Below, piece by piece: positions 1,067 through 51,423 of a stretch of 64,000 nucleotides of DNA. The position numbers and the translations under genes are program-made. Under the pieces are notes generated by a model. That model ran no database searches, had not been told where the DNA came from, and was given only the letters and a program-made list of their open reading frames with translations. Each line of letters opens with the position of its first letter. The stretch's first letter is position 1. Origin of the DNA: an uncultured Candidatus Binatia bacterium (GTDB lineage Bacteria; Desulfobacterota; Binatia; Bin18); NCBI GenBank assembly GCA_965200965.1, contig OZ241744.1:3040001-3104000 (forward strand). Direction: 5' to 3'.

Positions 1067-2273
1067 ATAAAGAAAACCCGAATTCATACGATGGCAGCGG
1101 CTCTCAGCCTAGCGCTAATCGCGCCAGCATTTGGATAAGAACCAGTCAACAGCCTTGAAGTCCCTGGCAACGGCTCTTTATCAGATCGGCATAGGCTATG
1201 TGTCCGGCTGGGTGTGTGACGCCGAGCGTGTCGCTATCGTTATTGATGGCGGTCTGCACCTTCCGCCCGTGGCCCGGAATATCAGCCGAGGCGATACCGA
1301 AGCGGCATGCGGAGACCAAAACAACGGCTTTATCACGCAATGGAATTGGAGCTTGATGGGGGATGGAACCTATACGGCCGCCCTTGTGGTAGATGGGAAA
1401 ACCCTTCAAGAAATCCGCTTCACCGTTACCACCTTGGGCGAGGAGTTTGTCCGGGGTGCTGAACGGGATGTTGAGATAGCGGATTTTCCTAGCACCGGAG
1501 AGACTACCCGGCTCCGGTGGCAGCAAAGCGTTCAAGGCTTTGTCCTGGTTCCAGGCCCAACCCCCGAAGAACCCGAAGAACCATCCGTTCCAACCCCCGA
1601 AGAATTGGAGTCAACACATATCCCCCAGGCCCATTTTGTCTATCCGGCTGTACCGCGACCTAGAAGCCGCCCAAGCCTGCCTGCCTGACGGATTGTTCCA
1701 CAACCTTCGGCCCGGACTCTAAGCCGGTTGGAAAATCCGGCAAGCCGCTCATATCAGAGTGGTATCGGGATTATCTCAGGCTGGGTCTGTGGTGAAGCAA
1801 CGGCAGAGATTGAGGTTGTCTTGTCCAGGGCGGAATACTATGAACTGACCGCTGAAGGTGTAAGCGGTCAGGAGGGAAGGGATTATTATATCCAGTCCGG
1901 CCAAGAAATCCTCCGAATCCCTGCAATGGGGAATACAAATCTGGACGGGGCAGGCAACTTGCTGTTCTGGGGAGTTCCACGGGCCGACACTGAGGCCCTT
2001 TGCGAAGGCCCTGAAAACGGGTTCATCACGCAAATGAACTGGAATCTGCTTGGGGAAGGGGTGTATTTCATCACTCTCCAGGCTGATGAGGGGGAGCTTC
2101 ATACTCACAGATTCACAGTCACCACCTTTGGCGAAGAGTTTGTCCGGGGGGCTAGGGGAGAGTGTACTATTGCGGACTTCCCCAGTCCCGGACAAAGCGC
2201 CCGGTTTTGGTGGGAGGAATCTTTACAGAACCTTGTCCTTGTGAACCCTCCTCCTTCTTCAGTAGAGGAGTAA
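1067..2273 (+). pseudogene. Degraded secreted protein with two copies of the unnamed 'SGIG..SGW.C...RGDTE..C...WNW' domain
   Basis: AGGAG RBS then ATA at 1067; signal-like MAAALSLALIAPAFG; TAA at 1136-1138; +1 frameshift near 1180; in-frame TGA at 1686-1688 separates ORFs 1131..1688 and 1728..2273, which share a frame. Confidence 0.75.
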
Positions 2274-2289
2274 CCCCTGTCTGCAACAC

Positions 2290-2312
2290 CCGGCTCCCGT
2301 GGATGGAGCCGG
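2290..2312. terminator. GC-rich hairpin CCGGCTCC-loop-GGAGCCGG
   Basis: Perfect 8-bp inverted repeat just after the stop at 2273; no clear U-tract. Confidence 0.4.
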
Positions 2313-2332
2313 ATCAAAGAAGGAGAAGAACT

Positions 2333-3052
2333 GTGGAAAACCGAATGGAAGAGGCAACACAAAACCTGATGACGGCTTTCTTTGCCCTTGCCGAATCTGC
2401 CAAAGGTAAAATCCTTATTCAGGATATGGCGTGTTTGGATGAGGGGGGGAAGCCCCGACATTTCAGTATGGGAAGGGGTTTGGGAGGAACCGGAGTTTGT
2501 CCGCCTCCTAGAGGCTATGGAGGCGGTGATAAAGGAGCGGAGGAGCTAGGAATAGAAGTCAAGACCCTCACCATCCAAAATCAGTATCATGGCTCTGAGG
2601 CGTCCCTCACTGTTGAGCTTGACGACAGTGATAAGCTGGTGCTCTTTGGTTACGACACGCGGCTTCAATACAATGGACAGTGGGACATACTCCCGGCGGG
2701 TAACACTGATGCGCCTTGGGATACGATTACAGCCATACGCGCCTATATCGATTATCCTCATGGCTGGGATGGACAGAGGGACCTTCAGCCTGTGATGCAA
2801 ATTCTAAGCCTAACCCCTGAGATAACACCGTGGAGGAGTACGGTTCTTATCAGGAGCGGCCGGAGGCACCCCAGGACTTGGGCTTACGCGATAATAGGCA
2901 CGCCTACATGGGCGAAAAATATCCTTACCATTCCGATCAAACGAGTTCTTGAGACAAACGGCTTCAAGGTCTCCCGTCATGCTCATTACACTAACGGATT
3001 ACACATAAGTTACTGCGCTGCATCTGATCCTGATAGTTGCGTTGTTCGATGA
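2333..3052 (+). CDS. Hypothetical protein (island-borne)
   Basis: AGGAG at 2321-2325 before GTG 2333; long ORF; no recognised motif. Confidence 0.55.
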   Translation: MENRMEEATQNLMTAFFALAESAKGKILIQDMACLDEGGKPRHFSMGRGLGGTGVCPPPRGYGGGDKGAEELGIEVKTLTIQNQYHGSEASLTVELDDSDKLVLFGYDTRLQYNGQWDILPAGNTDAPWDTITAIRAYIDYPHGWDGQRDLQPVMQILSLTPEITPWRSTVLIRSGRRHPRTWAYAIIGTPTWAKNILTIPIKRVLETNGFKVSRHAHYTNGLHISYCAASDPDSCVVR

Positions 3053-3229
3053 GGCTTTGTCCTCGTACCAAGACCATCAGAAGAGAGGAGGCTACGGAAT
3101 GAAGATTGAAACCGACATCTCAGAAGTTCTGACCTTTGTCGCCTGCTGACTGGCTGACCTCAGCTTATTCAAGCGTTAATTTTTGAGTGAGGAGTACAGG
3201 CCAGGTTAAGAACGCTGAAACTCTGTTGC

Positions 3230-3514
3230 ATGAAAGTCGATGAAAAACTATTGGCGAAAGCGAGGAACAGCCCGGCCAATCTCGCTTTTGACGATTTAAT
3301 CAAACTTGTGGAGCAGCTGGGCTGGAAGCATCGGAATACGAAAGGGAGTCATCACATCTTTTCTTACCCACGGGCTAGGGATACGGGGAACCTGTATCCC
3401 CGCCCCCTCAACCTACAGCGCTGGAAAGGCGGAAAGGCGAAACGAGAACAGGTAAAAGAAATGCTGAAGCGAGCGGAAGAGATGGGGATAATAGAGAAAC
3501 GGGGGAACCTATGA
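3230..3514 (+). CDS. hicA: HicA family mRNA interferase toxin
   Basis: NSPANLAFDDL...LGW...GSHHIF...QVKEML, typical of HicA; precedes hicB. Confidence 0.85.
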   Translation: MKVDEKLLAKARNSPANLAFDDLIKLVEQLGWKHRNTKGSHHIFSYPRARDTGNLYPRPLNLQRWKGGKAKREQVKEMLKRAEEMGIIEKRGNL

Positions 3515-3735
3515 CTGTGGAGGGATTGCCGCCTTACACCTACGAGTGGACAAGGTGTACGGAATCAGAAGACATTGAGGCACGTTGCTTGGAGATTCCC
3601 GACCTGTCAGCCTATGGAGAAACGCCCGAAGAAGCGCTTGACGAGATCAAAATAGCCGTGTCGAGCTGGCTGGAAGTCCTGGAAAAGGACGGCCTCCCTT
3701 TTCCCGCGCCGCTTCATGCGCTGAGAGCATCGTGA
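3511..3735 (+). CDS. hicB: HicB family antitoxin (short form, no DNA-binding domain)
   Basis: EIPDLSAYGETPEEALDEIKIAVSSWLE...PAP HicB signature; ATGA overlap with hicA. Confidence 0.85.
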   Translation: MTVEGLPPYTYEWTRCTESEDIEARCLEIPDLSAYGETPEEALDEIKIAVSSWLEVLEKDGLPFPAPLHALRAS

Positions 3736-3808
3736 GCTTCCCGGCCGTACCGCCTGTCTGACACTGCTGCGTGACCCTTTATTCTGCCGTGTCTGAAGGC
3801 TAGGATGG

Positions 3809-6800
3809 GTGGCTATGGCTTATTCAGACTCCGGTGTCCCTGCCCTGTCACCGACCGCCCAAGACCTGCTGGCCCTGCTGCGGGAGCGCATCCTGCTGTT
3901 TGACGGGGCGATGGGCACGTCGATTCAAGACCTGCACCTCGATGCCGCGGCCTTTGGCGGGCATGAGTACGAAGGCTGCAATGAAAATCTGGTGATGACC
4001 GCCCCGCAGTTCATTGCCGATATCCATACCGGGTTTCTTCAAGCCGGCTCGGACATCATTGAGACAAATACCTTTGGCGCGACGCGCATTGTCCTGGCCG
4101 AATATGGGCTTGAGGACAAGGCTCCGGCGATCAATCAGGCCGCGGCTGAAATCGCCCGGCAGGTGGCCGACCGGCACAGCACCCCGGCCAAACCCCGCTT
4201 TGTGGCCGGCTCAATGGGACCGACGACAAAGACGATCTCAGTGACCGGCGGGGCGACATTTGGCGAGATGCGGGCCGCCTACGCCGAACAGGCCCAAGGA
4301 CTGGTGCGCGGCCACGTTGACCTCCTCATCCTGGAGACCGCTCAGGACGCCCTGAACCTGAAGGCCGGGCTGCTCGGCATTGATGAGGCGTTTTCTGGCC
4401 TTGGCCGGCGCGTCCCGGTGGTTGTGTGTGGCACAATCGAAACGATGGGGACGACCCTGGCCGGTCAGGGCGTTGAGGCGCTGTATGTTTCGCTGGCCCA
4501 CAGGGAACTGCTGGCGATCGGCCTCAACTGCGCGACCGGCCCGGACTTTATGACCGACCACCTGCGCACCCTGGCCCGGCTGTCCCGCTTTCCGGTCGTG
4601 TGTATGCCCAACGCCGGCCTGCCGGATGAAGACGGGCATTACAATGAATCTCCCGAACTCCTGAGCGCCAAGCTGGAGCGCTTTGTTGACCAGGGCTGGG
4701 TGAATATGGTCGGCGGCTGCTGCGGCACCACCCCGGCCCATCTACGGCTCTTGTCTCAGATGCTGGCCGGCAAAAAGCCGCGCCACCACCACGCGCCACG
4801 ACGCAGCGTGGTATGCGGGCTTGAGCCGCTGGTCATTGACGAAGACAAACGCCCGGTCCTGGTTGGAGAACGGACCAATGTGATTGGCTCGCGCAAGTTC
4901 AAACGTCTGATTACCGAAGGGGCGTTTGAGGAGGCGGCAGAGATTGGACGGCGGCAGGTGCGGGGTGGTGCTCAGGTGCTTGATGTGTGTCTGGCCGACC
5001 CGGACCGTGAAGAAAGGGAAGACGTGACGACCTTTTTGGACATGCTGGTCAAAAAGGTCAAAGTCCCGCTGATGATTGACTCGACCGATGCACGGGTCAT
5101 TGAAGCCGCGCTCGAGCGCTGCCAGGGCAAGGCCATCATCAACTCGATTAACCTTGAAGACGGCGAGGAGCGCTTTCAGAAAATCGCCCCCCTGCTCAAA
5201 CGTTACGGCGCGGCCGTGGTAGTCGGCTGCATTGACGAAGACCCTGTTCAGGGCATGGCCGTTACCCGCCAGCGTAAGCTTGAAATTGCCCGGCGCAGCT
5301 ATGAATTGCTGACCCAGCAGTATAGCCTGGAGCCGGAAGACCTGATCTTTGACCTGCTGGTGTTTCCGCTCGGCACCGGCGACCAGAATTATATTGGCGC
5401 TGGACGAGAAACGGTTGAAGGCGTGCGGCTCATCAAAGACGCCTTTCCTGAGTGCAAAACCATCCTCGGCATCAGCAATGTCTCTTTTGGTTTGCCGCCG
5501 GTCGGCCGCGAGGTGCTGAACTCGGTCTTTTTATACGACTGTGTCAAAGCCGGGCTCGATATGGCGATTGTCAACACCGAAAAGCTGGAGCGCTACGCCT
5601 CTATCCCGGAAGAAGAACGGCGGCTGTCAGAGGACTTGATCTACTGGCGGGGCGAGGACCCGGTCGCCGCCTTTGCCGCCCATTTCCGCCAGCGACCAAC
5701 GCGCAACAGGGCGGAGACGGGCCGGGAGCTGCCGCTGGATGAACGTCTGGCTCGGTATATCATTGAGGGATCGAAAGACGGGTTGATTGACGACCTGAAC
5801 AAGGCCCTGTGCGGTAGAACACCGCTCAATATCATTAACGGTCCGCTCATGGCGGGTATGGATGAGGTCGGGCGGCTGTTCAATAACAACGAACTCATCG
5901 TAGCCGAGGTGTTGCAGAGTGCCGAGTCGATGAAGGCGGCGGTTGGCCACCTTGAGCCGTTTATGGAAAAAACCGCCGAAGCGCTCAAGGGGGTGGTCAT
6001 GCTGGCTACGGTCAAGGGTGACGTACACGATATTGGCAAAAATCTGGTCGAGATTATCCTGGGCAATAACGGCTATCGGGTTGTCAATCTGGGCATCAAG
6101 GTCCCGCCGGAAACCCTGATTGATGCCTACCGGGAATATCGTCCCGATATCATCGGGCTGTCCGGTTTGCTGGTCAAATCTGCCCAACAGATGGTGGTGA
6201 CGGCTCAGGACCTGCACAACGCTGGGGTGGAGTGTCCGATGCTGGTTGGCGGGGCCGCTCTGACCGCCCGGTTTACCGCCAGCAGAATTGCCCCGGAGTA
6301 TGCAAACCTGGTCTGTTATGCCAGCGATGCGATGAACGGTCTTGAGTTGGCCAACCGGCTCGTTGATCCCGACAAACGGATCCACCTCGTCCAGAAAATC
6401 GTGGCTGAACAGGAACGTTTGGCTCAGCAGACGGCAAAGCCGCCGCGCGTCGTCGGGAACGGACGGACGGCTCCCCACACGTCCTCGGTGGCCCATGACC
6501 ACCCCATACCAAGTCCGCCAGACCTGCGTTTGCATGTGATTGAGGATCACGACCTTGAAGAGATTTTTGCCTACGTCAATCCGACCATGCTGTACGGCAA
6601 ACACCTGGGGCTCAAGGGCAAGCTCGACACGCTGCTTGAGCAGCAGGATGCGAAGGCCGTGGGTCTGCACACCCGGGTTCGTGTCCTGCAGGATCGGGTC
6701 CTGGCGAAAGGTTTGATGCGCGCCAAGGGGCTCTACAAGTTCTTTCCCGCCCAGTCTGACGGCAATACCTTGCTGGTGTATAACGCGGCGGGCGATCGGG

Positions 6801-7348: not shown

Positions 7349-7396
7349 CGCCGGCAGTGCCAGATCAGCCGCTAGGCGGAGCGACCCCGCCTTGTC

Positions 7397-7425
7397 TTGA
7401 CAAAGCCCGGCCACCCGACTAGTCA
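7397..7425 (+). promoter_or_regulatory. Possible sigma70 promoter for the hydrolase-thiolase operon
   Basis: TTGACA (7397-7402), 17 nt, TAGTCA; -10 is imperfect. Confidence 0.35.
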
Positions 7426-7454
7426 GGGGGCAGCTTTCTTCCCGAGAGGAGCAT

Positions 7455-8276
7455 ATGCCAACAAAATACGTTGATGTTGACGGCTATGCGGTCCATTACT
7501 TTCACACCGGCCAAACAACCCTGCCCCCAGTCGTTCCAGATGTCAGCCAGGGCAAACTTATCCTGTACATTCACGGGGCGGGCAGCAACGGGCATTTTGC
7601 CCATAAGCTGCTCGATATCCTGTCGGTCAGGCACAGTCCCCTCTCTTTCGATTTTCCGGCCCACGGCCGCTCAAGCGGCATTGACAGCCTGGGCAGCATC
7701 ACCGCCTACAGCGATTTCACCTACAGTTTGTGGCAAACGCTCGGCCTTCGTCCGGCGGTACTGATGGGTCACTCCATGGGCGGAGCGATCGCCATGGACT
7801 TGGCCCTGCGCCGTCCCGAGATGGTCAGTGGCCTGATCCTGAGCTGCACGGCCGCCACATTCAACATTCCGGACGAGCGGGTTGAGACCTGGGCACAGGT
7901 CATGAAAGGCCGCCAGTCCCAGCCGTTTACCAAAGATTCCTGCTCGCCCAAGACGCCGCAAGCAATTGTCCAGGAGGGCTGGATGGAGCAGACTAAGACC
8001 GACCCGCGCGTCCGCCACTTCGATTTGGTGGCGTGCCAACAGGTCGATATGAGGCCCAGACTGAGCGAACTCAGGACACCAGCGCTGATTCTGGCCGGCG
8101 GGGACGATACCGCTACGCCGGTTGCCCAGAGCGAAGAACTACGCGACCAGATTCCCGGTGCCCAGCTCAGGATTATTGAAGATGCCGGCCACTGGCTCCC
8201 AATCGAAAAGCCGCAGGTGGCGTGCGATGCCATTGAGGCGTTTTTCGGCTCATCAGCGCAAGAGGACAGATCATGA
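7455..8276 (+). CDS. Alpha/beta-fold hydrolase
   Basis: HGAG oxyanion motif, GHSMGG nucleophile elbow, GGDD and AGH catalytic residues. Confidence 0.9.
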   Translation: MPTKYVDVDGYAVHYFHTGQTTLPPVVPDVSQGKLILYIHGAGSNGHFAHKLLDILSVRHSPLSFDFPAHGRSSGIDSLGSITAYSDFTYSLWQTLGLRPAVLMGHSMGGAIAMDLALRRPEMVSGLILSCTAATFNIPDERVETWAQVMKGRQSQPFTKDSCSPKTPQAIVQEGWMEQTKTDPRVRHFDLVACQQVDMRPRLSELRTPALILAGGDDTATPVAQSEELRDQIPGAQLRIIEDAGHWLPIEKPQVACDAIEAFFGSSAQEDRS

Positions 8277-9421: not shown

Positions 9422-9433
9422 GGGAGAGGTGTC

Positions 9434-9949: not shown

Positions 9950-9988
9950 CCAAAAGCCAGACCATTCGGCAGGCTGGGCAGATACCCT

Positions 9989-10657: not shown

Positions 10658-10668
10658 AGGATACGACT

Positions 10669-18691: not shown

Positions 18692-20443
18692 ATGCTCCCC
18701 TCCTTCCTCAGCCCCCTGACCCGCCTGTCGCCGGTAGCGTTGGCTGGCCTGTTTACGCTGCTGGCCGGCCTCGCCTTCCTGTGGAAGCTGGGCGACGGGC
18801 CGATCTACCGGACGATGGAAGGGCGGGAAGCCCTGGTGATGCAGGAGATGCTGCGCAGCGGCAACTGGGTGCTGCCGCTGCGCAATGGCGAGACAATTCC
18901 TTCCAAACCGCCCCTGTTACACTGGCTCGGTGCCGGCGTCGCCCGGCTGAGCGGGGGAATGTCGGAATGGGCAGCCCGCTTTCCGTCTGCCCTGTTCTCT
19001 GCCCTGAGCGTCGGCCTGACCTGTTTGCTCGGCTGTCGGCTGGCCAACCGTGAGGTCGGCATCCTGGCCCCTCTGCTGTTGCTCACCACGCCCCTGTTTG
19101 TCGAAATGGCGCGGGAAGCCTGGGTCGATTCGGCCCTGGCCTTTTTTGTCCTGGCCAGCCTGAGCAGTTTCGCCGGTATGTACGAAGCCGGCGAATGGCG
19201 GGGCTGGCGGAGTCTGGCCTTTGCCCTGTCCCTGGCCGGCGCAAGCCTCAGTAAAGGCCCGATCGGCCTCATTCTGCCCAGCCTGGTGATTACGCTCTAC
19301 CTCACAGCCCAGGGACAACTGTCACGCCTCCGGTACCTGTTGCGCCCGACCAATGTCGTGCTGGCCCTTGGCCTTCCCCTGACCTGGTATATCCTGGCGT
19401 TCAACCAGGAGGGCTGGGCATTTTTTCACAAGCAACTGCTCCAGGAAAACATCGTGCGCTTCACCTCCGGTTCGGGCAAACAGATTCCCTCCTCAGCCTT
19501 TTTTGTCGTGCCGTTTATCGTGGGCGGCCTGCCCTGGAGCCTGCTGTTCGGCTTTGGCCTGTGGCACTTTGCCCGCCAGGCTCCTATCCGCGAGAAGGGG
19601 GTACTGGCCCTGATGTGGTGGCTGGCGACCGTCGCCTTTTTTTCGGTCGCCGCCGGCAAGCGCGAGGTGTATCTCCTGCCCCTGTACCCGGCGGTTGCCC
19701 TGTTTGCCGCGCAGTGGGGCTGGGTACATGTCCCCCGCCAGACACGACCGCTCTCCCCCTGGCTGGCAACAGGTCTTGCCCTGGTCGCTCTCGGCCTCAG
19801 CCTGGCAAGCCTGCTGGCCGCGGCCACTATTGTGCTCGGCTGGCTTACCGTGGACTCGGCCGCGGTAGAGCTGGTGTTTGGCGACGACAAATGGAAAAGC
19901 GCGGCCCGCTTCATCCGCTTTGTGGCTGAGCAACCGGCGTATGCCACGATGTTGCTGGCTCTTGTGAGCAGCTGCGGGCTGGGGGCAGTCTGGACGGCGA
20001 CACAGGGCCGCTGGCAGACCAGCCTGTGGCTAGTGCTGTGTGTCCTGTTGCTGACGACCGCCGGCCTGTCGCCTTTTACCCGGGCCTATGCCAAACAGTT
20101 CAAAGCCCTGACCGGATTTGCCGCCCACATCAGCCAGGCAGTCGGCCCTGACCAGCGCGTGTTCTTCTACACCCCCCGGCCCTATTCTTCAGAGTTTGAT
20201 GAGTTCTCCCAGGTCTATTTTTACCTCAACCGCCCGGTCCCCCTGGCCGCGTGCGCCGAGCAGCCCGACTTTTCCCGCTGCCAGCCGGGCTACTACATCC
20301 TGCGGGAACGGCACTGGCACCCCCGGCAACACACGCCTGGTACCCATCTGGTGGTGGACAGCCGCAACGTCTCAGGGCCGGATGCGCACCTGCGCCTGGT
20401 CCTGGTCCGCCGGGATGAAAGCACCCCTGGCAGCAGCTTATAG
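18692..20443 (+). CDS. ArnT/PMT-like GT-C membrane glycosyltransferase
   Basis: EGRE...EM..SGNWVLP..NG...SKPPLLHW, ARFPSA, KGPIG, KREVYLLPLYP; many TM segments. Confidence 0.88.
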   Translation: MLPSFLSPLTRLSPVALAGLFTLLAGLAFLWKLGDGPIYRTMEGREALVMQEMLRSGNWVLPLRNGETIPSKPPLLHWLGAGVARLSGGMSEWAARFPSALFSALSVGLTCLLGCRLANREVGILAPLLLLTTPLFVEMAREAWVDSALAFFVLASLSSFAGMYEAGEWRGWRSLAFALSLAGASLSKGPIGLILPSLVITLYLTAQGQLSRLRYLLRPTNVVLALGLPLTWYILAFNQEGWAFFHKQLLQENIVRFTSGSGKQIPSSAFFVVPFIVGGLPWSLLFGFGLWHFARQAPIREKGVLALMWWLATVAFFSVAAGKREVYLLPLYPAVALFAAQWGWVHVPRQTRPLSPWLATGLALVALGLSLASLLAAATIVLGWLTVDSAAVELVFGDDKWKSAARFIRFVAEQPAYATMLLALVSSCGLGAVWTATQGRWQTSLWLVLCVLLLTTAGLSPFTRAYAKQFKALTGFAAHISQAVGPDQRVFFYTPRPYSSEFDEFSQVYFYLNRPVPLAACAEQPDFSRCQPGYYILRERHWHPRQHTPGTHLVVDSRNVSGPDAHLRLVLVRRDESTPGSSL

Positions 20444-20516
20444 TTCAAACTACAGTCCCCACCCCACGCCAGGGCTTGGCTTGCATCCTGCCCCAGCTCC
20501 AGATACACAGAGCCAG

Positions 20517-21275
20517 ATGGCTGCCGACGCTCCGTCTCCTCCCCCCCCCCCGCTTGGTGAACGTCCGGCCGGTCTGGTCCAGACCGGCCTCGCCGCCTGG
20601 CTGCGCCGCTACCGACGTCTTGTCCCTATCCCGCTGTGTGTCCTGGTTCTGATATTCCTTCCTCCCCTCTCCCCGCTGGCCAGCCCAGGGCTTGACTTTG
20701 CTAGCGATATCCTTGGCACAGCGGTGTGTCTGCTCGGCCAGTGGCTGCGGGTCTGGGCCTGGGGCAGCAACGCCGTGGTCGGCAAGGCCGGCGTGCGTGA
20801 GCGCGGCCCCTACGCCCTGATGCGCCACCCCCTGTACGCCGGCAACTTTCTCATCGTGCTGGGCCTCGTCCTGGTCTATCATAACCCCTGGGTCTATCCG
20901 CTCTTCCTGCTGCCCTTTGCCTATCTGTACGACGCCATCACCAGGATGGAAGAGCAACGCCTGCACTGGCGTTTTCCCCACGACTACGAAGGCTATCGGC
21001 AAGTCGCCGTACCCCGCTTTCTCCCGGTCCTGTCACATCTGGGCCGGGCGTTTGACACCACGCGCCCGTTTGGCTGGCGGCTGGCTTGGCGCAAAGAGTA
21101 TGAGTCGCTCTGCGGTTGGCTGGCCGGCATTGTCGGCATTCAACTCTACGAGCGGGTTGAGGTGCTTGGCTGGACGGTCGCTTGGCCGGCCAGCCGCCTG
21201 TGGCTCGGCCTGCTGGCGTTGATCACCGTGGCCAATATGGCTCTCAAAGCGCGCAGACGCCTCTCACAGCGGTGA
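20517..21275 (+). CDS. Isoprenylcysteine/phospholipid methyltransferase family membrane protein
   Basis: GPYALMRHPLYAGN...EEQRL...F..Y..Y...VPRFLP; start at ATG 20517 inferred. Confidence 0.8.
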   Translation: MAADAPSPPPPPLGERPAGLVQTGLAAWLRRYRRLVPIPLCVLVLIFLPPLSPLASPGLDFASDILGTAVCLLGQWLRVWAWGSNAVVGKAGVRERGPYALMRHPLYAGNFLIVLGLVLVYHNPWVYPLFLLPFAYLYDAITRMEEQRLHWRFPHDYEGYRQVAVPRFLPVLSHLGRAFDTTRPFGWRLAWRKEYESLCGWLAGIVGIQLYERVEVLGWTVAWPASRLWLGLLALITVANMALKARRRLSQR

Positions 21276-21279
21276 GCCG

Positions 21280-22155
21280 ATGGCCGCGCTCGGGCGCAAA
21301 CGCCTCATTGTCAACGGCGACGATTTTGGGATGTCCGAGCGGGTCAATGCGGCCATCCTGTACGCCCATCAGCACGGGATTCTGACCAATACCAGCCTGA
21401 TGGTCACTGCCAAGGCGTGGCGCGGGGCGATCGAGCTAGCGCGGGCCACGCCGAGCCTCGGGGTCGGGCTGCACCTGACCCTGGTCCAAGGTCGGTCGGT
21501 CCTGTCACACCCCCATGTCTCACGGCTGACCGACCGCAACAGAAACTTTCTCAATGATCCGACCCGTGCCGGGCTACGCTACTTCTTCTCGCCCCGTGCC
21601 CGCTCTCAGGTCCGGGACGAATGCCGGGCCCAGATCGAGCGCTTTCTGGCCACCGGCTTGCCGCTGGCTCATATTGACGGGCATCTCCATATGCACATGC
21701 ATCCCGTCGTTCTGGACAGCCTGCTGGAGCTGGCCAGGGAATATGGCGTCCGGGCGGTGCGGCTGACCCGGGAATCGCTGGCGCGGAGCTTGGCGCTCGA
21801 TCCGCGCGCCGCACCTCGCAAACGCCGGCAGTCTTTCATCTTTCGCCGTCTTGCCCGGCATGCCGAAAAGAAGCTGGCCGCGGCCGGCCTTGTCTGGCCG
21901 GATGCGCTGTTCGGCCTGCACCAGACCGGAGCGGTAGATGGGCCTTACCTGCTCGGCATCCTGCCCCATCTGCACGCCGGCGTGACCGAACTGTACTGCC
22001 ACCCCGCCTTTCTGCCCTGTGCCGAGGTCCAGGGCTGGAGCCCGGGCTATCGCCGTGACCTTGAGCTGGCCGCCCTGACCAGCCGGGCCGTTCGGCGCAT
22101 GATTGACGACCAGAATATTGAACTGATCGGCTACCGCGATCTGTACCGGGCCTGA
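21280..22155 (+). CDS. hpnK: Hopanoid-associated YdjC-family deacetylase HpnK
   Basis: LIVNGDDFG, VGLHLTLV, HIDGHLHMHMHP, ELYCHP. Confidence 0.88.
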   Translation: MAALGRKRLIVNGDDFGMSERVNAAILYAHQHGILTNTSLMVTAKAWRGAIELARATPSLGVGLHLTLVQGRSVLSHPHVSRLTDRNRNFLNDPTRAGLRYFFSPRARSQVRDECRAQIERFLATGLPLAHIDGHLHMHMHPVVLDSLLELAREYGVRAVRLTRESLARSLALDPRAAPRKRRQSFIFRRLARHAEKKLAAAGLVWPDALFGLHQTGAVDGPYLLGILPHLHAGVTELYCHPAFLPCAEVQGWSPGYRRDLELAALTSRAVRRMIDDQNIELIGYRDLYRA

Positions 22156-22284
22156 CTGGACATGGGCCTACGGCCAGGGCTGGCTGCGGTCACGCGCTCA
22201 TGCCCAACTGGTAAGGGCTAGAGCGATTTCAGGGGATGCTAGCAGGCGTTAGCGTTGTGAGGGTGTGAGCGGGCTGGAGGGCAA

Positions 22285-22302
22285 GCCCCCCTTCGGGGGG
22301 GC
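22285..22302. terminator. GCCCCCC-TTCG-GGGGGGC hairpin between convergent genes
   Basis: 7-bp perfect stem with a cUUCGg tetraloop. Confidence 0.55.
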
Positions 22303-22399
22303 ATCACAATGAAAGAGTGGGGTAGTGCGGCATCTGATATGGGATCACTCGTAGCGGGTTCAGAGTTGCTAGGCCGTCCGTGTATGCCACGCCATAAGG

Positions 22400-23086
22400 T
22401 CATTCAGTCCCTACTATGGTAAAGTTCTGAAGGCTTTCATCCCATTCCAGAATTGACGTTATTCCTGGGCGCGGGAAGTCGGGAACCCTCACCCTGCGAG
22501 AGTATTCTTCCCCGAAATGAGCGATACGGAATTCGTTTTGGGCATAGATGGGGTGCTGCCTATTGTAGATGTGCTCGCCAGTTACCACGCCAGATTCACC
22601 CAGCACTATAGTAAGAGGCCCGCTACAGTCTAAGCGGTTTTCCCCTATGCAGTACAGGTTCCAGTTCACAAGGACAGAAAAGCCGAGAGAGCTATTCTCG
22701 GGCGGAAACAGACAACGCTCCCCCGGCAGGGCGTCCGCCCGTGTTTCGTGGGTCGCTAGATAGCCCAACGCCGGGCGGGGCTCTTCCGATATGCTGGCGG
22801 CTGGCCTCCAGCCAACATTAGTAGGACACCAGGATGTTTTCCCGTTCTGGTCTTGAATCCAGCAGTTATGAGCATCCCCGCAGGTCCAGCCCCGGATAAC
22901 CCCAATGCCTGCTTGTGTAGAGCCGAGGGCAGGTGTTTCTATGACGGTTTCCCCGCGATGCTCGGCATACCCGATAGGGGCAAGCACCGGCACTAGAATC
23001 GCCAGGGTGAAGGCGAGGGGTAGATCAATTGCAAGATTGATTTTGCGTATGCTGACGAGGCCAGCCCGCCCGTTCTGGGCTGTCAA
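22400..23086 (-). CDS. Secreted protein with a diverged copy of the unnamed two-Cys domain (start uncertain)
   Basis: Signal-like segment then IETPALGSTQAGIGVIRGWTC...TRAD...VNWNL...FGEEY...PDFPRPG....LEWDESLQNF. Confidence 0.7.
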   Translation of the reverse strand: MTAQNGRAGLVSIRKINLAIDLPLAFTLAILVPVLAPIGYAEHRGETVIETPALGSTQAGIGVIRGWTCGDAHNCWIQDQNGKTSWCPTNVGWRPAASISEEPRPALGYLATHETRADALPGERCLFPPENSSLGFSVLVNWNLYCIGENRLDCSGPLTIVLGESGVVTGEHIYNRQHPIYAQNEFRIAHFGEEYSRRVRVPDFPRPGITSILEWDESLQNFTIVGTE

Positions 23087-23221
23087 GCCGGCGCTAGCAG
23101 TCTCACAGAGCAGCTCGTCAAGCCGTCACTTGAAAACTTGATTATTGCAAACGTACCTTGATAAGAAAAAAAGAAGAAGTAGAACTTTTCTCTCCCTTCT
23201 TGTCAATGATTTTCGGTCGGC

Positions 23222-24391
23222 CTACAAGGTCTCGCTGTGTGAGACATCGGGTACGATGTCTTCCGCGGCCATGAGCGCCATCGTGCCATCCCGACGCACC
23301 CGAAAGGTATGCTCTCGCCAGCGGACGGTGTTCCCGCCCAGGCTCCAGACCCAAATCCCGAAGGCCATGAGGTCGGTGATGAGGACAAGTCCAAACGTTG
23401 CCAGGGGTAGCCTGACCCCCAGAAAATATCGGCCCAGCAGCATAGCCGAGAGACAGCGAACCGCCAGGGTCAGCCCGGACAGGACGGCCAGCGTTGTCCA
23501 GCCCGACATAAGCCCCAGCACGGCCCAGACCGTGCCATACGTCACCAGGGTGCCCACATAGCCGACCGGGCGGCACAGGCGTTGGGTTCGCGCCCAGCGC
23601 ATCTGGTGGGAGACCAGTTCCCGCAGGCTGGCCACGTCGGGATAGGTTTCGACGACATAGGGCAGGATGCGCACCCGGTAGCCGGCCCGGCGGGCAAAGT
23701 TCCCCAGATAATAATCATCGGCCAGATAATCGGCCAGGGCCGCAAAGCCCCCGATAGCCTTAGTACACGAATGTGTCACGGCCACGCTTGCCCCAAAGGC
23801 GTAGCTGGTCCGCTCGACCTGGCTGGCAAGCAGGACGGCAGGCATGAAAGAGGTGTTGATCAGCACCGATTCGAGCAGGGCCGGCAGGGGCTGGCGAGCG
23901 ACGCTGCGGTAGGGACAGGTCACGACTCCGACCCGTGGACCGCTCAGGGGTGGAATGATGCGCCGCAGGTAGTCCGCGGCGACCTGCACATCGCTGTCGC
24001 TGATGACAAAAATGTCGTATTTGGCCCGCTGTGACAGCGCGTGCAGGGTGTTCACCTTCTGATTGCTCCCGACCGTCTCAGGATCGACGACCAGCACAAT
24101 ATCGCACTCTGGGAAGTCGTGCTGGAGGTGTTGGACGACCGTGATGGCGGGATCGAGCGGGTCGCGTACACCAAACAACAGTTGAAAGGCAGGGTAATCA
24201 ATACGGCAGAAACTCGCCAAATGCGCGTACAGGTCGGGCGTTGCCCCCTTGAGAGGCTTCAGGATGGACACCGGCGGGCAGGCTGCTAGGGGGGTGGGAC
24301 GCGGTCGAAATAGTCGCCAGGCGGCATACACGGACAAGAGGTAATACGCCCAGGCAGCACACAGCAAAACGGCGAGGAGGATCGTAAGCAT
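23222..24391 (-). CDS. hpnI: Bacteriohopanetetrol glucosamine glycosyltransferase HpnI
   Basis: PVSILKPLKG, GSNQKV, SDSD, LADDY, QMRWART (GT2/GT21). Confidence 0.9.
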   Translation of the reverse strand: MLTILLAVLLCAAWAYYLLSVYAAWRLFRPRPTPLAACPPVSILKPLKGATPDLYAHLASFCRIDYPAFQLLFGVRDPLDPAITVVQHLQHDFPECDIVLVVDPETVGSNQKVNTLHALSQRAKYDIFVISDSDVQVAADYLRRIIPPLSGPRVGVVTCPYRSVARQPLPALLESVLINTSFMPAVLLASQVERTSYAFGASVAVTHSCTKAIGGFAALADYLADDYYLGNFARRAGYRVRILPYVVETYPDVASLRELVSHQMRWARTQRLCRPVGYVGTLVTYGTVWAVLGLMSGWTTLAVLSGLTLAVRCLSAMLLGRYFLGVRLPLATFGLVLITDLMAFGIWVWSLGGNTVRWREHTFRVRRDGTMALMAAEDIVPDVSHSETL

Positions 24392-24407
24392 AAGAGCGGG
24401 CGGACGG

Positions 24408-24434
24408 CCGGAGGGGAAGGCTCAGCCCCTCCGG
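24408..24434. other. Intercistronic stem-loop between hpnJ and hpnI
   Basis: CCGGAGGGG ... CCCCTCCGG, 9-bp perfect stem. Confidence 0.45.
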
Positions 24435-24444
24435 GCACGGTGTC

Positions 24445-25890
24445 CTAGGCGGCTGGTGCGGTGCTCTTGCCGGCCATCTGACGCCGGGTGCGCATGGTCC
24501 GAAAAAAATCTTTGCCTTCTTGCCACATCCGTTTGCGTTCCTCGGGGTTGGCGACCATCTTTTTCACGGCTTTGACGATGTAGCGGGGACGCAGATAGTA
24601 GGAGGTGTAAAACCGCTCAACCGTCGAGAAGATCTCCTCGCTCGACAGGTGGGGGTAGTTAATGACGCATTGCTGATAGCCCGTCTCGTCCACCATGTCT
24701 TCCGGTTTGATCAAGCCGTGTGCTACGGCGTGGTCGTAGAAGGCGGTCCCGGGATAGGGTGAGGCCAGGGAGACCTGGATCGTCTCGGGGTTCATTTCCC
24801 GTGCAAAACGCATGGTCTCTTGCATGGTTTCCCGCGTTTCACCAGGCAGGCCGAGGATAAACGTGCCGTGAATCAAAATGCCGAGCTTGTGGCAGTCTGT
24901 GGTAAACCGCCGGGCGGTTTCGAGCGCAACGCCTTTTCTGATGTTTTTCAGAATCTGGGCGTTGCCGGACTCATAGCCAATCACAAACAGGCGCAGGCCG
25001 CCCTCTTTCATGATTCTGAGCGTTTCGTAGTCAACATTGGCCCGCGAGTTTGTGGACCAGCACAGGCCCAGCGGTTTGAGTCGCCGGGCGATCTCGCGTG
25101 CCCGTTTGGGATCCGCGGTGAAGGTGTCGTCATCAAAGAAAATCTCTTTCATGCCTGGAAACAGACGGGGCATGGCCTGGACTTCGGCAATCACGTTGTC
25201 CACCGAGCGGGTCCGGTAGGAGTGGCCGGTCGTGACCTGGGGCCAGAGGCAGAAGGTGCAGCGGGCCGGACAGCCACGGCCGGTGTACAGGGACACATAC
25301 GGGTACTGACAGTAGGGGCTGTTATACTTGCGGAAGTCGAGGTCGCGGGCATAAATGGAGCTTGCAAAGGGCAGGCGGTCCAGTTCGTCACCGGTCATCG
25401 GGGTCCGCTCGGGATTATGCACAATCCGCCCGTTCTTCCGGTAGCTGATGCCTTGGACCTGGGCCCAGTCCAGACCCTCGGCCAGCTCTTTCATTGACCA
25501 GTCGAACTCTTTGCGGGCGGCGATATCAATGGCGGTGGATGCTTGCAGGGTCTGCTCGGGCATGGCCGTTGGATGGCCGCCGACAAAGGCGACCGTCGCC
25601 CCCGGATTGCTGTCCTTAATCATCTGCGCGGTTTGCACGTCCATCTTGAACGAGGGCGTACTGGTATGCAGGACCACGAAGTCATACGCCTTGGCAATAG
25701 CGACGCTCTGGGCCTGACTCAGCCCCTCGGGCGGAGCGTCAAGCACACGGCTGTCTTGAATCATGCCGGCCGGGTAACACAGCCAAGTTGGATACCAGAA
25801 GGACCACACCTCCCGTGTCGCCTGATAGCGAGACCCCGCCCCGCCGTCGAAGTTGTCGTAGGCCGGGGGGTTTAAGAACAAGGTACGCAT
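24445..25890 (-). CDS. hpnJ: Hopanoid radical SAM protein HpnJ
   Basis: FLNPP..FDGGAGSRYQA..E..SFWYPTWL; CPARCTFCLWPQ radical SAM motif. Confidence 0.95.
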   Translation of the reverse strand: MRTLFLNPPAYDNFDGGAGSRYQATREVWSFWYPTWLCYPAGMIQDSRVLDAPPEGLSQAQSVAIAKAYDFVVLHTSTPSFKMDVQTAQMIKDSNPGATVAFVGGHPTAMPEQTLQASTAIDIAARKEFDWSMKELAEGLDWAQVQGISYRKNGRIVHNPERTPMTGDELDRLPFASSIYARDLDFRKYNSPYCQYPYVSLYTGRGCPARCTFCLWPQVTTGHSYRTRSVDNVIAEVQAMPRLFPGMKEIFFDDDTFTADPKRAREIARRLKPLGLCWSTNSRANVDYETLRIMKEGGLRLFVIGYESGNAQILKNIRKGVALETARRFTTDCHKLGILIHGTFILGLPGETRETMQETMRFAREMNPETIQVSLASPYPGTAFYDHAVAHGLIKPEDMVDETGYQQCVINYPHLSSEEIFSTVERFYTSYYLRPRYIVKAVKKMVANPEERKRMWQEGKDFFRTMRTRRQMAGKSTAPAA

Positions 25891-43217: not shown

Positions 43218-43238
43218 GGCTGAACATCCCTCCCTGTC

Positions 43239-46419: not shown

Positions 46420-47055
46420 AGTCTTCCCAGCCGAACCGCTCGCCACACAGCGGAACGAACAACAGAACGGTCCCGCCAATGGTTATTGTGGAAAATCCTG
46501 GCAGCGCGGTCGGGACGAGCACGGGGACATCGCCCAGATACGTCAGGTTCTTACCGCCGCCGTGCTGGAGATAGAACTTCCTGCCCTTGGGGTCATAGGT
46601 GACGACGCATGACGGCGGCGGGAAATCATCCGGTCGCCAAAATCAATACAGACCTGTTCGCCGCGGTCCCGGCCAATGGGGCTCATGCCGTGGCCAAGGG
46701 TGACAGTCCGGCCCTGGCCCAGCCCCCGGACCACCACCAGCCAGCCCACCGGCGGATCGTCCATTGCCGAGGCTGCGCCTTGGGGTGGATGCGCTGCGGC
46801 TGACTTGGCACCGGGCCGGTAGATGCGGGTCAGGTCGGTGGGACTGTCCGCGGCGACTTCGCGTTCCCGGCTGCCGATGCGCCGGGACCTGGCGATCACC
46901 GTTCTGGCCTCATAGCCCGACGGCTCAGGGGCTTCAGTGCCCGCGGAGGGTTGGTACGCCCGGCCACGCCCTCCCTTGGGCTGAAACTCGTCCTCAAAGG
47001 AAGCGCGTGTCTTTTTCTCAATGCCCTCTCGGTCTGGCCCAGGTTTTACCCGCAT
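46409..47055 (-). pseudogene. FHA-domain protein, 1-bp deletion near 46606
   Basis: PVGWLVVV.G..G...IGR...ISRRRHA, then in another frame VTYDPKGRKFYL...FVPLCGERFGW. Confidence 0.8.
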
Positions 47056-47329
47056 ACTCCCTCCTGTGACAGGTGAATCAGTTCATCCAGGCAGTAGCGT
47101 CAGATGCCATATGGCGATGCTTTGCTTCATCAGGCTTTGCCTTTAATCGGATTTTTGCCCAATGCAACAGCTTCGCCGGTCTCCTGATTAGGGGCGACAC
47201 GGTGGCCGGCGTCCAGTTCTCTTCCTGCGCTGATCCTGTGCTAGCGTCCGTCTTCGTCAACGAAGACAGCTTGATGTTTGCGCGGTCGGTGGCGAACCAG
47301 AGCGACGAAGGCCAGTGTCGACCAACAGT

Positions 47330-48481
47330 TCATGTTGTCAGCGACAGCACGTCCCGGTAGCGGGCCACAAAGCGCCGATCGATCCAGTCCTTGAGCCGCC
47401 ATGCCGGGCGGCTATGCGATACCAGCCGCTTATAGCGCAGCAGCGCCCTGCCGTCCGCGGTGTTCAAAATTGATAAGAAGCTGGCCTGCGGCCTGTAGCA
47501 CGGGGCCGACCGACCGTACAGCTTGGCCGCCAGACTGTCCCACAGCACCGGGCCTTGGCGGACCGCGTACACGCCGGCCTTGGGGGTGCAGGGGTAAGCG
47601 GCCAGGCTGGCGCAGTCACCCACGGCGAACACCCGCCCATCGTCAAGCGCGCGCAGGCTGTCCGTGACCAGCAGAAAGCCTCTGTCGTCCAGCGACAGAC
47701 CACAGTTGTCGAACACCGCCGGCGGTGCCGGCCCGCTCAGCCAGACGGTCAGCCGGGCCGGCAGCGAACGGCCGTTGTCCAACTCGACCGCCTCGGTATG
47801 AACGTGGCGCACGCGCTGGCCGGTATACACCGCAATGTTTCTACGGGTAAGAATCCGCCCGGCTCGGCGGCGAAACGCGGCCGAGTAGCCGCCCAGCATG
47901 GTGGCTGCCGCCTCAAACAATGATACCTGATGGATCCGGTTGGCCCGCCTCAGCACGGCCTCAAGCGCACACGCCATCTCAAAGCCGGCCGGTCCGCCGC
48001 CAACCACCGCAATACGGCACACACCGGCGTTCTGTTCCTGTGCCAGGGCCTCAATGCGCCGCCGCAACTCAAGAGCCTGAGAGAAGGGCTTGAGCACAAG
48101 CGCGTGGCGCTTGACCGCCTCGGCCCCCGCGGCTTGGGAGCCAAGGTTGAACGAGACCAGGTCGTAGGCAACCGGCTCGGCCCCGGCCAGCCGCACCGTC
48201 CGCCGGGTCGGCTCAAGCCCCAGTGCCTCGGCCCTGATAAAGCGCCCGTTCGCCCGCCGTGTCAGGGCGGCGACCTCAATCCTGATAGCCTCTTGCGGGT
48301 ATATACCGGCCACATAACCGGGCAGCATACCCGAGTAGTGCTGGTCGTCATCCAGAGAAACAACGGTCAACTCGACATGCGGCAGAGGGTTGAGGATGCA
48401 CCGCCGCAGCACTTCGAGATGGGCGTGGCCGGCTCCGACAAGGACGAGGCGGGTGGGTTCGGGGCCGGCCTTGTCCTGCAT
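47330..48481 (-). CDS. FAD-dependent oxidoreductase (NDH-2-like; resembles the N-terminal domain of fused SelD)
   Basis: LVLVGAGHAH, YSGMLPG, VVGGGPAG, FAVGDCA, PKAGVYAVRQ, LKDWIDRRF. Confidence 0.85.
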   Translation of the reverse strand: MQDKAGPEPTRLVLVGAGHAHLEVLRRCILNPLPHVELTVVSLDDDQHYSGMLPGYVAGIYPQEAIRIEVAALTRRANGRFIRAEALGLEPTRRTVRLAGAEPVAYDLVSFNLGSQAAGAEAVKRHALVLKPFSQALELRRRIEALAQEQNAGVCRIAVVGGGPAGFEMACALEAVLRRANRIHQVSLFEAAATMLGGYSAAFRRRAGRILTRRNIAVYTGQRVRHVHTEAVELDNGRSLPARLTVWLSGPAPPAVFDNCGLSLDDRGFLLVTDSLRALDDGRVFAVGDCASLAAYPCTPKAGVYAVRQGPVLWDSLAAKLYGRSAPCYRPQASFLSILNTADGRALLRYKRLVSHSRPAWRLKDWIDRRFVARYRDVLSLTT

Positions 48482-48488
48482 GTCTGAC

Positions 48489-49583
48489 TCAGCGCTTCCT
48501 CGGCTCCAGACCCGCAAACCACGGCAACACCAGCTCTGCGTTGATGCTCGACGTATAGGCGTGCCCCCAGTCGGGCAGTTCTTTGTAGGTCGCCTTGTAG
48601 CCGATGTGGCGGAGCAGCTCATAGCCCTGCCGGATCGTGGCCACCGGGAAAATAAAGTCGTGGACGCCGTGGACGATGTAGATCGGCAGGTCTTGGCCCT
48701 GCTTGCGGCGCAGCATGGGGTCAAGCATGGCGTGAAAGTCGCCGGCAATCGGGGCAATGCCGGTAAACAGGTCCGGCCGGCTCAGGCCGAGCAGGTAGGT
48801 GAAGGTTCCGCCGTCGGACAGGCCGGACAGATAGACCCGACTCCTATCAACCGTATAGGCGGCGACCACTTCCTCGAACATCCTGGTGATCGAATCGACA
48901 TCGATCTGCGGTTGGAGGACCGCCCAAGTCACATCCACGGACTTGGGCGACAGCAGCAGATAGCCTTTGCTCTTGGCCGGCCGCAGCCAGGACCAAATAT
49001 AGTCCTCGCCGCGGCCGTAGCCACCGTGCAGACAGATAATCAGGGGCCATTCTTTGTCCGGGCTGTAATGCTCAGGCACATACAGGGAATAGGCCGCGTG
49101 GGCGTCGGTGCGCTTGGTGTGCATCAGGCCGACCGGTACCTCGGCCTCGGGTGCCGGTGTTTCCAGGGCGTCTCGATGCGCCAGCGCTTCGGGCAGCAAC
49201 CAGTACTCCTGGAGGGTCGGGGTGTGGGCCCGGATGTCGTACAGCAGGTTCATCGCCTTGCACAAGGCCCAGCGGCTGTGCAAAAAGGCCGCCGAAAAAT
49301 CTTTGCCGGCCGGCTTCAAAAATGCCTCGGCGGCGTTGCCGCACTGGACGAGAGCGGCACTCAAGGTCGCGTGAAACCCGGTCAGCGAGTCCGGGGGCGA
49401 AAGCGCGGCCAACTCAGCACTCAGGGTCGAGAACATATCGCCTGTCACCTCCTGGAGCCGGGCCTGGGAGTTGCCGGTATCGCCGAAGTGAATATGCTCT
49501 TGAATTGACTCGAACGTTCGCAGGAAACGGAGCAGTTGCTCCTCAGCCGCCCCGATGGCCCGGAGGTAGTGTTCGTCTGCCAT
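48489..49583 (-). CDS. Phospholipase/carboxylesterase with N-terminal helical extension
   Basis: LHGGYG, GLSDGG, HGVHD, GHAY. Confidence 0.85.
   Translation of the reverse strand: MADEHYLRAIGAAEEQLLRFLRTFESIQEHIHFGDTGNSQARLQEVTGDMFSTLSAELAALSPPDSLTGFHATLSAALVQCGNAAEAFLKPAGKDFSAAFLHSRWALCKAMNLLYDIRAHTPTLQEYWLLPEALAHRDALETPAPEAEVPVGLMHTKRTDAHAAYSLYVPEHYSPDKEWPLIICLHGGYGRGEDYIWSWLRPAKSKGYLLLSPKSVDVTWAVLQPQIDVDSITRMFEEVVAAYTVDRSRVYLSGLSDGGTFTYLLGLSRPDLFTGIAPIAGDFHAMLDPMLRRKQGQDLPIYIVHGVHDFIFPVATIRQGYELLRHIGYKATYKELPDWGHAYTSSINAELVLPWFAGLEPRKR
48939..48967. repeat. 29-bp exact direct repeat, copy 1 (copy 2 at 51388-51416)
   Basis: ggacttgggcgacagcagcagatagcctt at both positions. Confidence 0.9.
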
Positions 49584-49849
49584 CTCGCCCTCCCTTGTTG
49601 CAGTTTGCAGGCAGGACCCTAGCAGCCGAGCGAGTCCAGCCGCAAGAGTTAGCGCAGGCGCTTCCTGGCCGACCGTCGTCTCCCGGAACGCTGAGGCGCG
49701 GCTCAGCCGCCCTGCCCGGCTGTGTGGGTCTCCATGCTTGCTCTCTTCCCATGTCAGGAACACAGACCGGCCGGGGTAAATGGGGTGTGGAAAATCAGAA
49801 CAATAGGACCTTACACCGCGGACAAACTCGCGTCCTAGTGTTAAGTTGC

Positions 49850-49902
49850 TAGGGGTGAAGGCTTGTCGCCCGTCCTAGGGCAACGTGGGCGGCTTTTCTG
49901 GG
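49850..49902. repeat. ~53-bp imperfect direct repeat, copy 1 (copy 2 at 51498-51550)
   Basis: Identical 18-bp core ctagggcaacgtgggcgg plus similar flanks taggggt...gcccgt and ...tttt..ggg. Confidence 0.8.
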
Positions 49903-49909
49903 CTGTCCG

Positions 49910-51423
49910 CTAGTCCGTCGAGCCTGGAACCAGGACAAAGCCCTGTACGGGTTCTTGCCAGCGGAGAAGCACGTCCTCGTCGGGGGCTGGAAAGTCATTC
50001 ACCACTACATCCCGCTCTAGCCCTCTGATGAACTCCTCGTCGAGCGTGGTAACGGTGAAGCGGTTTTCTTGAACCGTCCGCCCGTCTACGACAAGCGCCG
50101 CGGTGTATGTCCCTTCCCCAAGCAAGTTCCAGTTCCATTGCGTGATAAAGCCGTTATTGGTATCGCCGCATACGGCTTCGGTATCACCGCGGGCGATATT
50201 CCGGGCTACCGGCGGAATGCGTAACCCTCCGTCGATAACGATTTCCACAAGCTCCCCCTCGCATGCCCAGCCGGAGATAAAGCCGATACCGCTTTGGAAT
50301 GAGCCGTTAGCAGGCACCTCGAGCCAAGCACGAGTTGACGTAGCCGTCGACTCCGGTGTGGGGGTTGGCTCTGAGCTTGGAACCAAGACAAAGCCCTGCA
50401 CGGGTTCTTGCCAGCGGAGAAGCACGTCCTCGTCGGGGGCTGGAAAGTCATTCACCACTACATCCCGCTCTAGCCCTCTGATGAACTCTTGCCCCATTGT
50501 GGTAATGGTGAAGGTGTTGCTCTGCATGGTCTGTCCGTCTATCACAAGCGCCGCGGTGTATGTTCCTTCCCCAAGCAAGTTCCAGTTCCATTGCGTGATA
50601 AAGCCGTTATTGGTATCGCCGCATACGGCTTCGGTATCACCGCGGGCGATATTCCGGGCTACCGGCGGAAGGTGCAGACCGCCGTCTATGACGATTGAGA
50701 CAGAACGGCCTTCACATGCCCAACCGGAGACAAACCCTATCCCGCTCTGGAATGAGCCGTCGCTAGGAACCTCCAGGTTGCCCACGGGTTCAGCCGGTTC
50801 TTCGGGTTCAGGTCCGGGGGGGGGGTCGGCCGTCTTGTCGTTGGTGGTGGTGTTGGTGGTGGCGGTTCACCATACCGACTATAGCCGGGCGGTAGGCTCT
50901 GAATCCGAACCTGGGCAGAGCCTAGAGACGTCCAACCTCCCGCTTGTACTGTCGCGTCAAGAGGTGGCAAGCGGAGTTGGGCGCATGACATTCCTAGCCC
51001 TACCTGCCCCCCGCTAAATGTGTCGGTATAAGGCGGCCCTGAATAGCAGAACATTTGCAATCCTGGAAGACAAGCCGATGTCAAAGCATAAACCCCGTCA
51101 GGTATGCCGGTAACGAGGATGTCCTCACCCTCCAACCGCCATGCAAACTCGGCATCGCGCGGGTTAGTGACTGCCGGAAGCCCGCCCGGCGGGTTAGCGT
51201 CAAACGTGAGAAGTGTCACCGAATCACCGCATGCCGCGGCCGCATAGCGGATAGCCCATTCCCGATAGCCCGCGGCTGTAGTCACGTCATAAGGCGGGCT
51301 TGACGTTGCCGTTGTGGTGGCCATTTGCCCAAAGGCGGGCGGACTAGCCAAAAAGCCCAGGACGAGGGCGATACCCGAAATCACCTGGGACTTGGGCGAC
51401 AGCAGCAGATAGCCTTGGGTCAT
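49910..51423 (-). pseudogene. Secreted protein: unique N-domain, Pro linker and two tandem copies of the unnamed domain; frameshift in a 10-nt homopolymer
   Basis: Signal ending PPAFGQ; G10 at 50816-50825 separates ORFs 50737..51423 and 49910..50785; domain copies 453 bp apart and near-identical in DNA. Confidence 0.8.
51388..51416. repeat. 29-bp exact direct repeat, copy 2
   Basis: Identical to 48939-48967. Confidence 0.9.

Follow-up and report, generated by a model that had tools for sequence, protein, structure and literature searches.

Why should an unnamed domain of about 133 amino acids recur at three dispersed loci within a single 64-kb stretch of bacterial DNA, each time on a gene for what looks like a secreted protein? 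The stretch in question, which we call the window, comprises 64,000 nucleotides from the 3.62-Mb genome of an uncultured Candidatus Binatia bacterium (GCA_965200965.1, contig OZ241744.1, positions 3,040,001 to 3,104,000; genome G000 in our set). Using a hidden Markov model (HMM) profile built from the genomic copies, we find that the domain family is real and undescribed. It is quite probably tied in its function to a cassette that joins a type II secretion system (T2SS) to a gene for a surface-layer-like (S-layer-like) protein, be it as an anchor or as an export signal.

A preliminary description of the window had counted five copies of the domain, all of which translate as claimed and score far above chance (Table 1). 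The consensus and the two cysteines on which it insisted extend well past the window: an alignment of 304 homologous domains has C23 and C53 in 100% of them; conservation of both cysteines and of the terminal W and Q is 99–100%, and 56 alignment columns are conserved in at least 85% of the domains. On this pattern of conservation, the two cysteines probably form a disulfide. The near-identity reported for copies 49 kb apart amounts to 70% at the protein level and 71–72% at the DNA level, and the two copies of the tandem pair at the third locus are 87% identical to each other.

Folded alone, the fourth copy yields a mainly β AlphaFold model with a high predicted local distance difference test score (pLDDT; Table 1) and a predicted template modelling score (pTM) of 0.75. 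The tandem pair reaches a pTM of 0.83, and because this exceeds the value for one domain, the pair is predicted to pack. In structure comparisons, residues 1–96 are immunoglobulin-like (Ig-like; best Z 11.2, root-mean-square deviation 1.9, 84 residues aligned), and the predicted model has the two-sheet core of the Ig-like β-sandwich superfold; residues 97–134, which end in W-x4-Q-x-F, lie outside the range aligned to Ig folds. The domain is thus predicted to consist of an Ig-like sandwich core and a 40-residue β extension. A longer form, of about 165 amino acids and with a Cys-Cys motif, is homologous to this short form (probability 97%), to which it can be aligned.

That no characterised family would claim the domain had been proposed before, and sequence searches of Pfam, NCBIfam and the PDB indeed returned nothing above cut-off. 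Foldseek gave zero matches to the PDB at E 0.001 and one to BFVD (7.5e-4), an uncharacterised protein. The sandwich over residues 1–96 resembles Big_7 (PF17957) and the C-terminal Ig-like domain of a Thermotoga mannanase (PDB 6tn6) at 11% identity, but our domain differs from these in its conserved cysteine pair and its 40-residue extension. The tandem pair scores only 15.4 bits (E 0.029) against the Big_7 gathering cut-off of 24.1, and of 45 members of our family none matches at E 0.05. An autotransporter β-domain was also considered and rejected: the 133 residues are predicted to form a sandwich, match nothing in Pfam and show no transmembrane β-barrel.

Across the genome, the profile gives 47 matches in 36 reading frames, of which 25 appear intact with a signal peptide, as judged by a crude hydrophobicity test, and 11 are decaying. 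Further afield, it reaches 3,804 protein clusters at 50% identity, 1,555 of them at E 1e-30, and the named homologues come chiefly from Binatia or from metagenome-assembled genomes of unclassified Deltaproteobacteria. The domain is present in 52 of the 56 genomes of this Binatia order and in 63 of the 301 genomes of the class, spread over four families; in a phylum sample, 200 other genomes gave no match to the profile at 1e-10. Single genomes contain up to 134 matches, a figure that counts matches and not copies.

The domain caps dozens of unlike exported enzymes and adhesins with mutually unrelated passengers, whose Pfam accessions correspond to M4, S8 and M10 peptidases, GDSL lipases, FN3, cadherin-like and LRR domains. 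In 106 of the 150 best representatives of the 50% clusters the N terminus is hydrophobic by a crude score, and two of the 150 have a lipobox. The fold model and the homologue architectures together support the earlier picture of a β-rich module with two cysteines, carried by exported proteins whose passengers are interchangeable. The same cannot be said of its supposedly invariable place at the C terminus: in these 150 representatives the domain is C-terminal in 93, N-terminal in 43 and internal in 10, and 4 are short. With 43 N-terminal cases, a strict C-terminal sorting signal is unsupported. In 108 of 120 close homologues the protein ends within 15 amino acids of the domain, which occurs mostly as a tandem pair and in up to four copies per protein.

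This placement also bears on the C-terminal domain of the type IX secretion system, an Ig-like terminal module found in Bacteroidota on exported enzymes, adhesins and S-layer proteins, according to the accessible part of PMC12175726. The mirolase C-terminal domain (8qb1) aligns to our model with a middling Z of 6.9, among many Ig-like rows of similar score. The 133-residue domain differs in that it also occurs N-terminally and in tandem, has no Pfam match and is linked to a T2SS, and a type IX sorting domain confined to the extreme C terminus was therefore rejected.

One arrangement of the long form deserves separate mention. In G000, at 118.9–122.7 kb (L121:2941-6693), an imelysin and a di-haem oxidoreductase, as assigned by Pfam, carry it straight after a plain signal peptide. 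Imelysins and di-haem oxidoreductases of this kind are usually lipoproteins, so the long form may replace the lipid anchor on them.

What, then, does the domain go together with? Clustering the neighbours of 80 loci of domain-bearing genes gave no conserved adjacent machine or neighbour, and the partner locus was for that reason found by presence and absence across genomes. It contains the kind of co-occurring secretion machine that the preliminary description had proposed to look for, a T2SS with an S-layer-like gene. Beside the native gspD lie genes for a small lipoprotein and a hypervariable secreted protein of 350–600 amino acids, wzt/wzm and glycosyltransferases, and the order gspD, lipoprotein, secreted protein, wzt/wzm is kept in genomes of several genera. 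Gene context and hypervariability (14–23% identity across subgroups) suggest that the secreted partner is an S-layer-like protein. It matches nothing in Pfam, NCBIfam or the PDB, nor any named S-layer family.

The setting is nevertheless a familiar one, as a secreted protein of 400–600 amino acids between T2SS genes and wzm/wzt is the mark of VapA-type loci, and the partner gene lies in just such a position. In the accessible part of PMC4413209, the proven S-layer locus of Aeromonas hydrophila AH-1 has the order sps-T2SS, vapA, wzm, wzt, and in that of PMC7821379 the Pseudoalteromonas Slr4 gene lies behind its own T2SS. Both resemble the Binatia locus in having the secreted protein by gspD, in Aeromonas directly before wzm/wzt as far as the same excerpt goes. 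They differ in that the Binatia partner matches no family of the databases named above: the Slr4 model (PF19526), tried on five genomes, gives no match in any of them at E 0.1, and the nearest named Atlas cluster to the partner reaches only 0.76. The accessible parts of the two papers describe no tag shared with passengers.

The partner profile detects only 1 of the 20 genomes of family f8, and manual inspection turned up divergent relatives in G025, G280 and G354 only. A codon-bias measure of high expression, which ranks the partner gene 1409 of 1460, is uninformative here: its scores span a tiny range, and its reference set, chosen by motifs, includes wrong genes. Several further observations concern the S-layer-like family in its own right. 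The complete genome G242 has 29 matches to it, which suggests a large and variable repertoire. At L242:5846-7804 (G023), L267:1453-4110 (G354) and L183 (G234), S-layer-like domains are doubled or fused behind other domains. Such arrangements, which extend to a genome that lacks the tag, may be a second route of passenger display. L244:1956-4592 (G310) holds two tandem distant members of the superfamily, in a family mostly without the domain, and the Atlas neighbours of the S-layer-like family include Acidobacteriota clusters.

Presence of the domain goes with that of the cassette. Among 31 high-quality genomes of the order, 25 have both the short form and the S-layer-like family, 4 have neither, none has the S-layer-like family only and 2 have the domain only; in both of the latter the contig stops within the partner locus. 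Across the class, the lipoprotein is found in 55 of the 63 domain-positive genomes, and 211 genomes from 15 other families have neither domain nor lipoprotein. Within genus g10, G256 and G257 have the S-layer-like gene, the lipoprotein and strong domain matches, whereas G255, G016, G258 and G259 keep GspD and are without the S-layer-like gene, the lipoprotein and the short form. These g10 genomes weaken the simpler reading in which the domain depends on GspD and nothing else.

A second group of losses involves the exchange of the whole cassette. G014 and G243, both 100% complete, have zero copies of the short or long form; 26 of the 28 genomes of their genus are positive. They are without native GspD (21% identity, against 58–88% among orthologues), and neither the S-layer-like family nor the small lipoprotein was found in them. 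An orthologue-level GspD match is missing in five fragmented domain-positive drafts as well. Their foreign T2SS surrounds a different secreted protein, of 587 and 620 amino acids, which is 55% identical between the two genomes. The C-terminal 112-residue, four-cysteine domain of this protein occurs in these two of the 56 genomes only, and it also closes three zinc peptidases as a C-terminal tandem pair. One peptidase tagged in this way is 50% identical over 117 amino acids to a peptidase from another genome that ends in the 133-residue domain. Profile comparisons find no similarity of the foreign tag to the 133-residue domain or to the native partner. Given related peptidases with unrelated tags, the S-layer-derived domain therefore takes the place of the 133-residue domain when the cassette is replaced.

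Because the tag is lost or replaced when the secretion and putative surface-layer cluster is lost or swapped, it is likely to be a dock on the outer coat. The reading that we favour, with confidence that falls slightly short of even, is that the tag attaches passengers secreted by the T2SS to the S-layer-like lattice or to the glycan beneath it. Tagged passengers would be exported by Sec, would fold and form their disulfides in the periplasm, and would then pass through the native T2SS, after which the tag would bind non-covalently to the lattice or to the underlying glycan exported by wzm/wzt. A more general version, in which each T2SS/S-layer cassette has its own folded Ig-like tag, at either end of the protein, that routes the passenger and locks it into the coat, such that a cassette swap makes the cell shed one tag family and equip its enzymes with the new tag, seems to us doubtful.

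Docking on the S-layer-like protein has to be set against several contrary observations. The number of independent loss events is only two, not six, because G014 and G243 are close kin (GspD 89% identical) and the GspD tree groups the three g10 losers that it includes in a single clade (support 93/91, not starred). The long form persists in three of the four S-layer-less g10 genomes and so needs no S-layer-like partner. G235 combines at least 75 domain matches with an S-layer-like gene that contains 9 stops and many frame switches, which may be a pseudogene or an assembly fault, and the S-layer-like match of G236 also contains a stop. Conversely, the cluster is not sufficient: the cassette is present and the domain missing in G023 and, as judged by the lipoprotein, in four f8 genomes, and in family f90 the lipoprotein matches in 17 of 19 genomes and the domain in 1 of 19. 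This sole domain-positive f90 genome is the one with the order-type cassette. Eight of the 63 domain-positive genomes of the class have no lipoprotein match. Direct binding is itself awkward, because the partner is hypervariable and the tag conserved, and in profile comparison the native S-layer-like protein shows no similarity to the domain, unlike the foreign case. A complex prediction for the G011 S-layer-like protein and the domain, made without folded controls, scored 0.01 and weighs on neither side.

Some of these observations sit better with a portable export signal, that is, a module that the native T2SS recognises in its folded state (GspC/GspD, maybe via the lipoprotein as adaptor) and that takes whatever passenger it carries across the outer membrane, with no lasting anchoring. 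Where GspD is kept, the long form outlives the S-layer-like gene, which fits this explanation better than docking does, as does G235, which keeps the lipoprotein and its many domain matches despite the broken gene. The two forms disappear together only in genomes whose native T2SS has been replaced, and the foreign tag could just as well be what a dedicated T2SS recognises. How T2SSs choose their folded substrates is poorly understood, in the words of the part of PMC10120004 that was accessible. We nonetheless consider an export signal rather unlikely, as four genomes have native GspD yet no short form, a native-type GspD is present in G258 and G023 although both forms of the domain are missing there, and the S-layer-like protein, likely the main substrate, shares no profile similarity with the domain.

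Less probable still, and in our view improbable, is a generic Ig-like domain for spacing, adhesion or carbohydrate binding that spread by duplication, whose loss along with the T2SS would reflect the loss of secreted proteins overall. Its nearest folds are indeed accessory Ig- and FN3-like domains of glycoside hydrolases, the nearest family-bearing Atlas clusters have Big_7 in 11–58% of their members, and nearly a third of the frames in G000 are in decay. The strong terminal bias, the pairing and the extent of column conservation all speak against such a spacer, and a neutral spacer would not be expected to give way, within one peptidase family, to an unrelated domain of S-layer origin. Self-assembly of the tags of different proteins into a sheet or fibre of their own that displays the passengers is very improbable: the predicted packing of tandem copies, the existence of single-domain secreted proteins (window 22400-23086) and proteins with up to four copies would suit it, but it leaves the dependence on the S-layer-like gene unexplained, and no major tag-only subunit gene is seen at the T2SS locus.

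Were the docking reading correct, its best-known counterpart would be the SLH domain. SLH domains occur on surface enzymes too, and in Gram-positive bacteria they bind non-covalently to a cell-surface polymer. The likeness lies in a repeated module that caps unrelated exported proteins of many kinds at one end or the other and is bound up with an S-layer system. The differences are that the 133-residue domain is predicted to be all-β and Ig-like, whereas SLH modules are repeats of about 55 amino acids; that no sequence match to PF00395, or to any Pfam entry, was found; and that the host is a diderm with a T2SS, whose native S-layer-like protein lacks the domain by profile. For the role of SLH domains we rely on the accessible part of PMC12175726.

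Within the window itself, the three loci had been taken for secreted-protein genes, which holds for locus 2, the only intact gene of the three; loci 1 and 3 are broken by stops and frameshifts (Table 1). In locus 1, a pseudogene, a former tandem-pair gene has decayed: it has one frameshift and two stops, the second of them between copies 1 and 2. Locus 3 breaks in two within its Pro linker, where the frame shifts at a 10-base homopolymer, and its relatives P0021, P0024 and P0072 have the same passenger N terminus with the domain at the end in one frame. The disrupted sites of both loci are covered gap-free by contigs of two public runs (X1 and X2, from one sample), an agreement that is not independent because the sample may be the source sample. 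The homopolymer is also a candidate phase-variation switch that would cut the passenger off the tag.

Table 1. Features of the three domain loci in the window (positions counted from its first nucleotide).
Feature	Position	Strand	Evidence
Signal-peptide remnant of locus 1, ends in stop (pseudogene)	1091..1135	+	Translation
Domain copy 1, frameshift between 1174 and 1188	1151..1550	+	190 bits
Pro/Glu linker, terminated by stop, same frame as copy 2	1548..1688	+	
Domain copy 2, insertion of ~40 amino acids, without own signal peptide	1722..2243	+	163 bits
Intact secreted single-domain protein (locus 2)	22400..23086	-	
Diverged domain copy 3, inside the locus 2 protein	22412-22948	-	61 bits
26-bp direct repeat, downstream of locus 3	49868..49893	-	
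Domain copy 5, C-terminal half of tandem pair	49928..50329	-	202 bits; pair pTM 0.83
Domain copy 4	50381..50782	-	202 bits; folded alone, pLDDT 92.5
Locus 3 signal peptide and passenger of ~190 amino acids	50737..51423	-	
10-base homopolymer at the frameshift separating passenger from domain pair	50816..50825	-	
26-bp direct repeat, upstream of locus 3	51515..51540	-	

The three loci do lie in islets of lower GC content, as had been noted (0.549, 0.559 and 0.589 against 0.615 ± 0.037), but the family as a whole does not: low GC as a family trait was rejected on a mean of 0.619 over all 47 genomic matches. The 26-bp motif that flanks locus 3 occurs five times in the genome with up to four mismatches, each time within 741 bp of a domain copy; the sites beyond the window are at G000 130720, 2413579 and 2416284. 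From this flanking motif, a young subfamily of near-identical domains may move as a cassette. Copy 3 is surrounded by a cluster that we take to resemble the hopanoid-associated genes hpnK, hpnI and hpnJ (window 20118-25890), and beside locus 1 lies what is presumably a small HicA/HicB-like toxin–antitoxin pair (window 3230-3735). Elsewhere in the genome, a Tad-like pilus locus (L135 region, G000 2753018-2760709) is broken up by a tandem run of about ten small-gene copies that contain degenerate repeats of low complexity, and the secretin of this region has a repeated domain in its N terminus.

In a limited and mostly open-access literature, parts of which were accessible to us, we found no description of a shared tag that hangs enzymes of Gram-negative bacteria on an S-layer. 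The family supplies a small module, predicted to be well folded, with a named candidate partner; it points to an S-layer candidate, so far unannotated, in an uncultured class and offers annotation for about 3,800 protein clusters, and the domain could serve as a surface-display tag. The natural swap, in which two unrelated tags appear on one peptidase family, each with its own cassette, makes the choice between anchor and export signal directly testable. If the general cassette reading is true, Gram-negative bacteria with T2SS-exported S-layers would have interchangeable display systems, a diderm counterpart of SLH, and the domain would act as a T2SS targeting module that is portable and can be transplanted, with G014 and G243 as an example of re-tagging.

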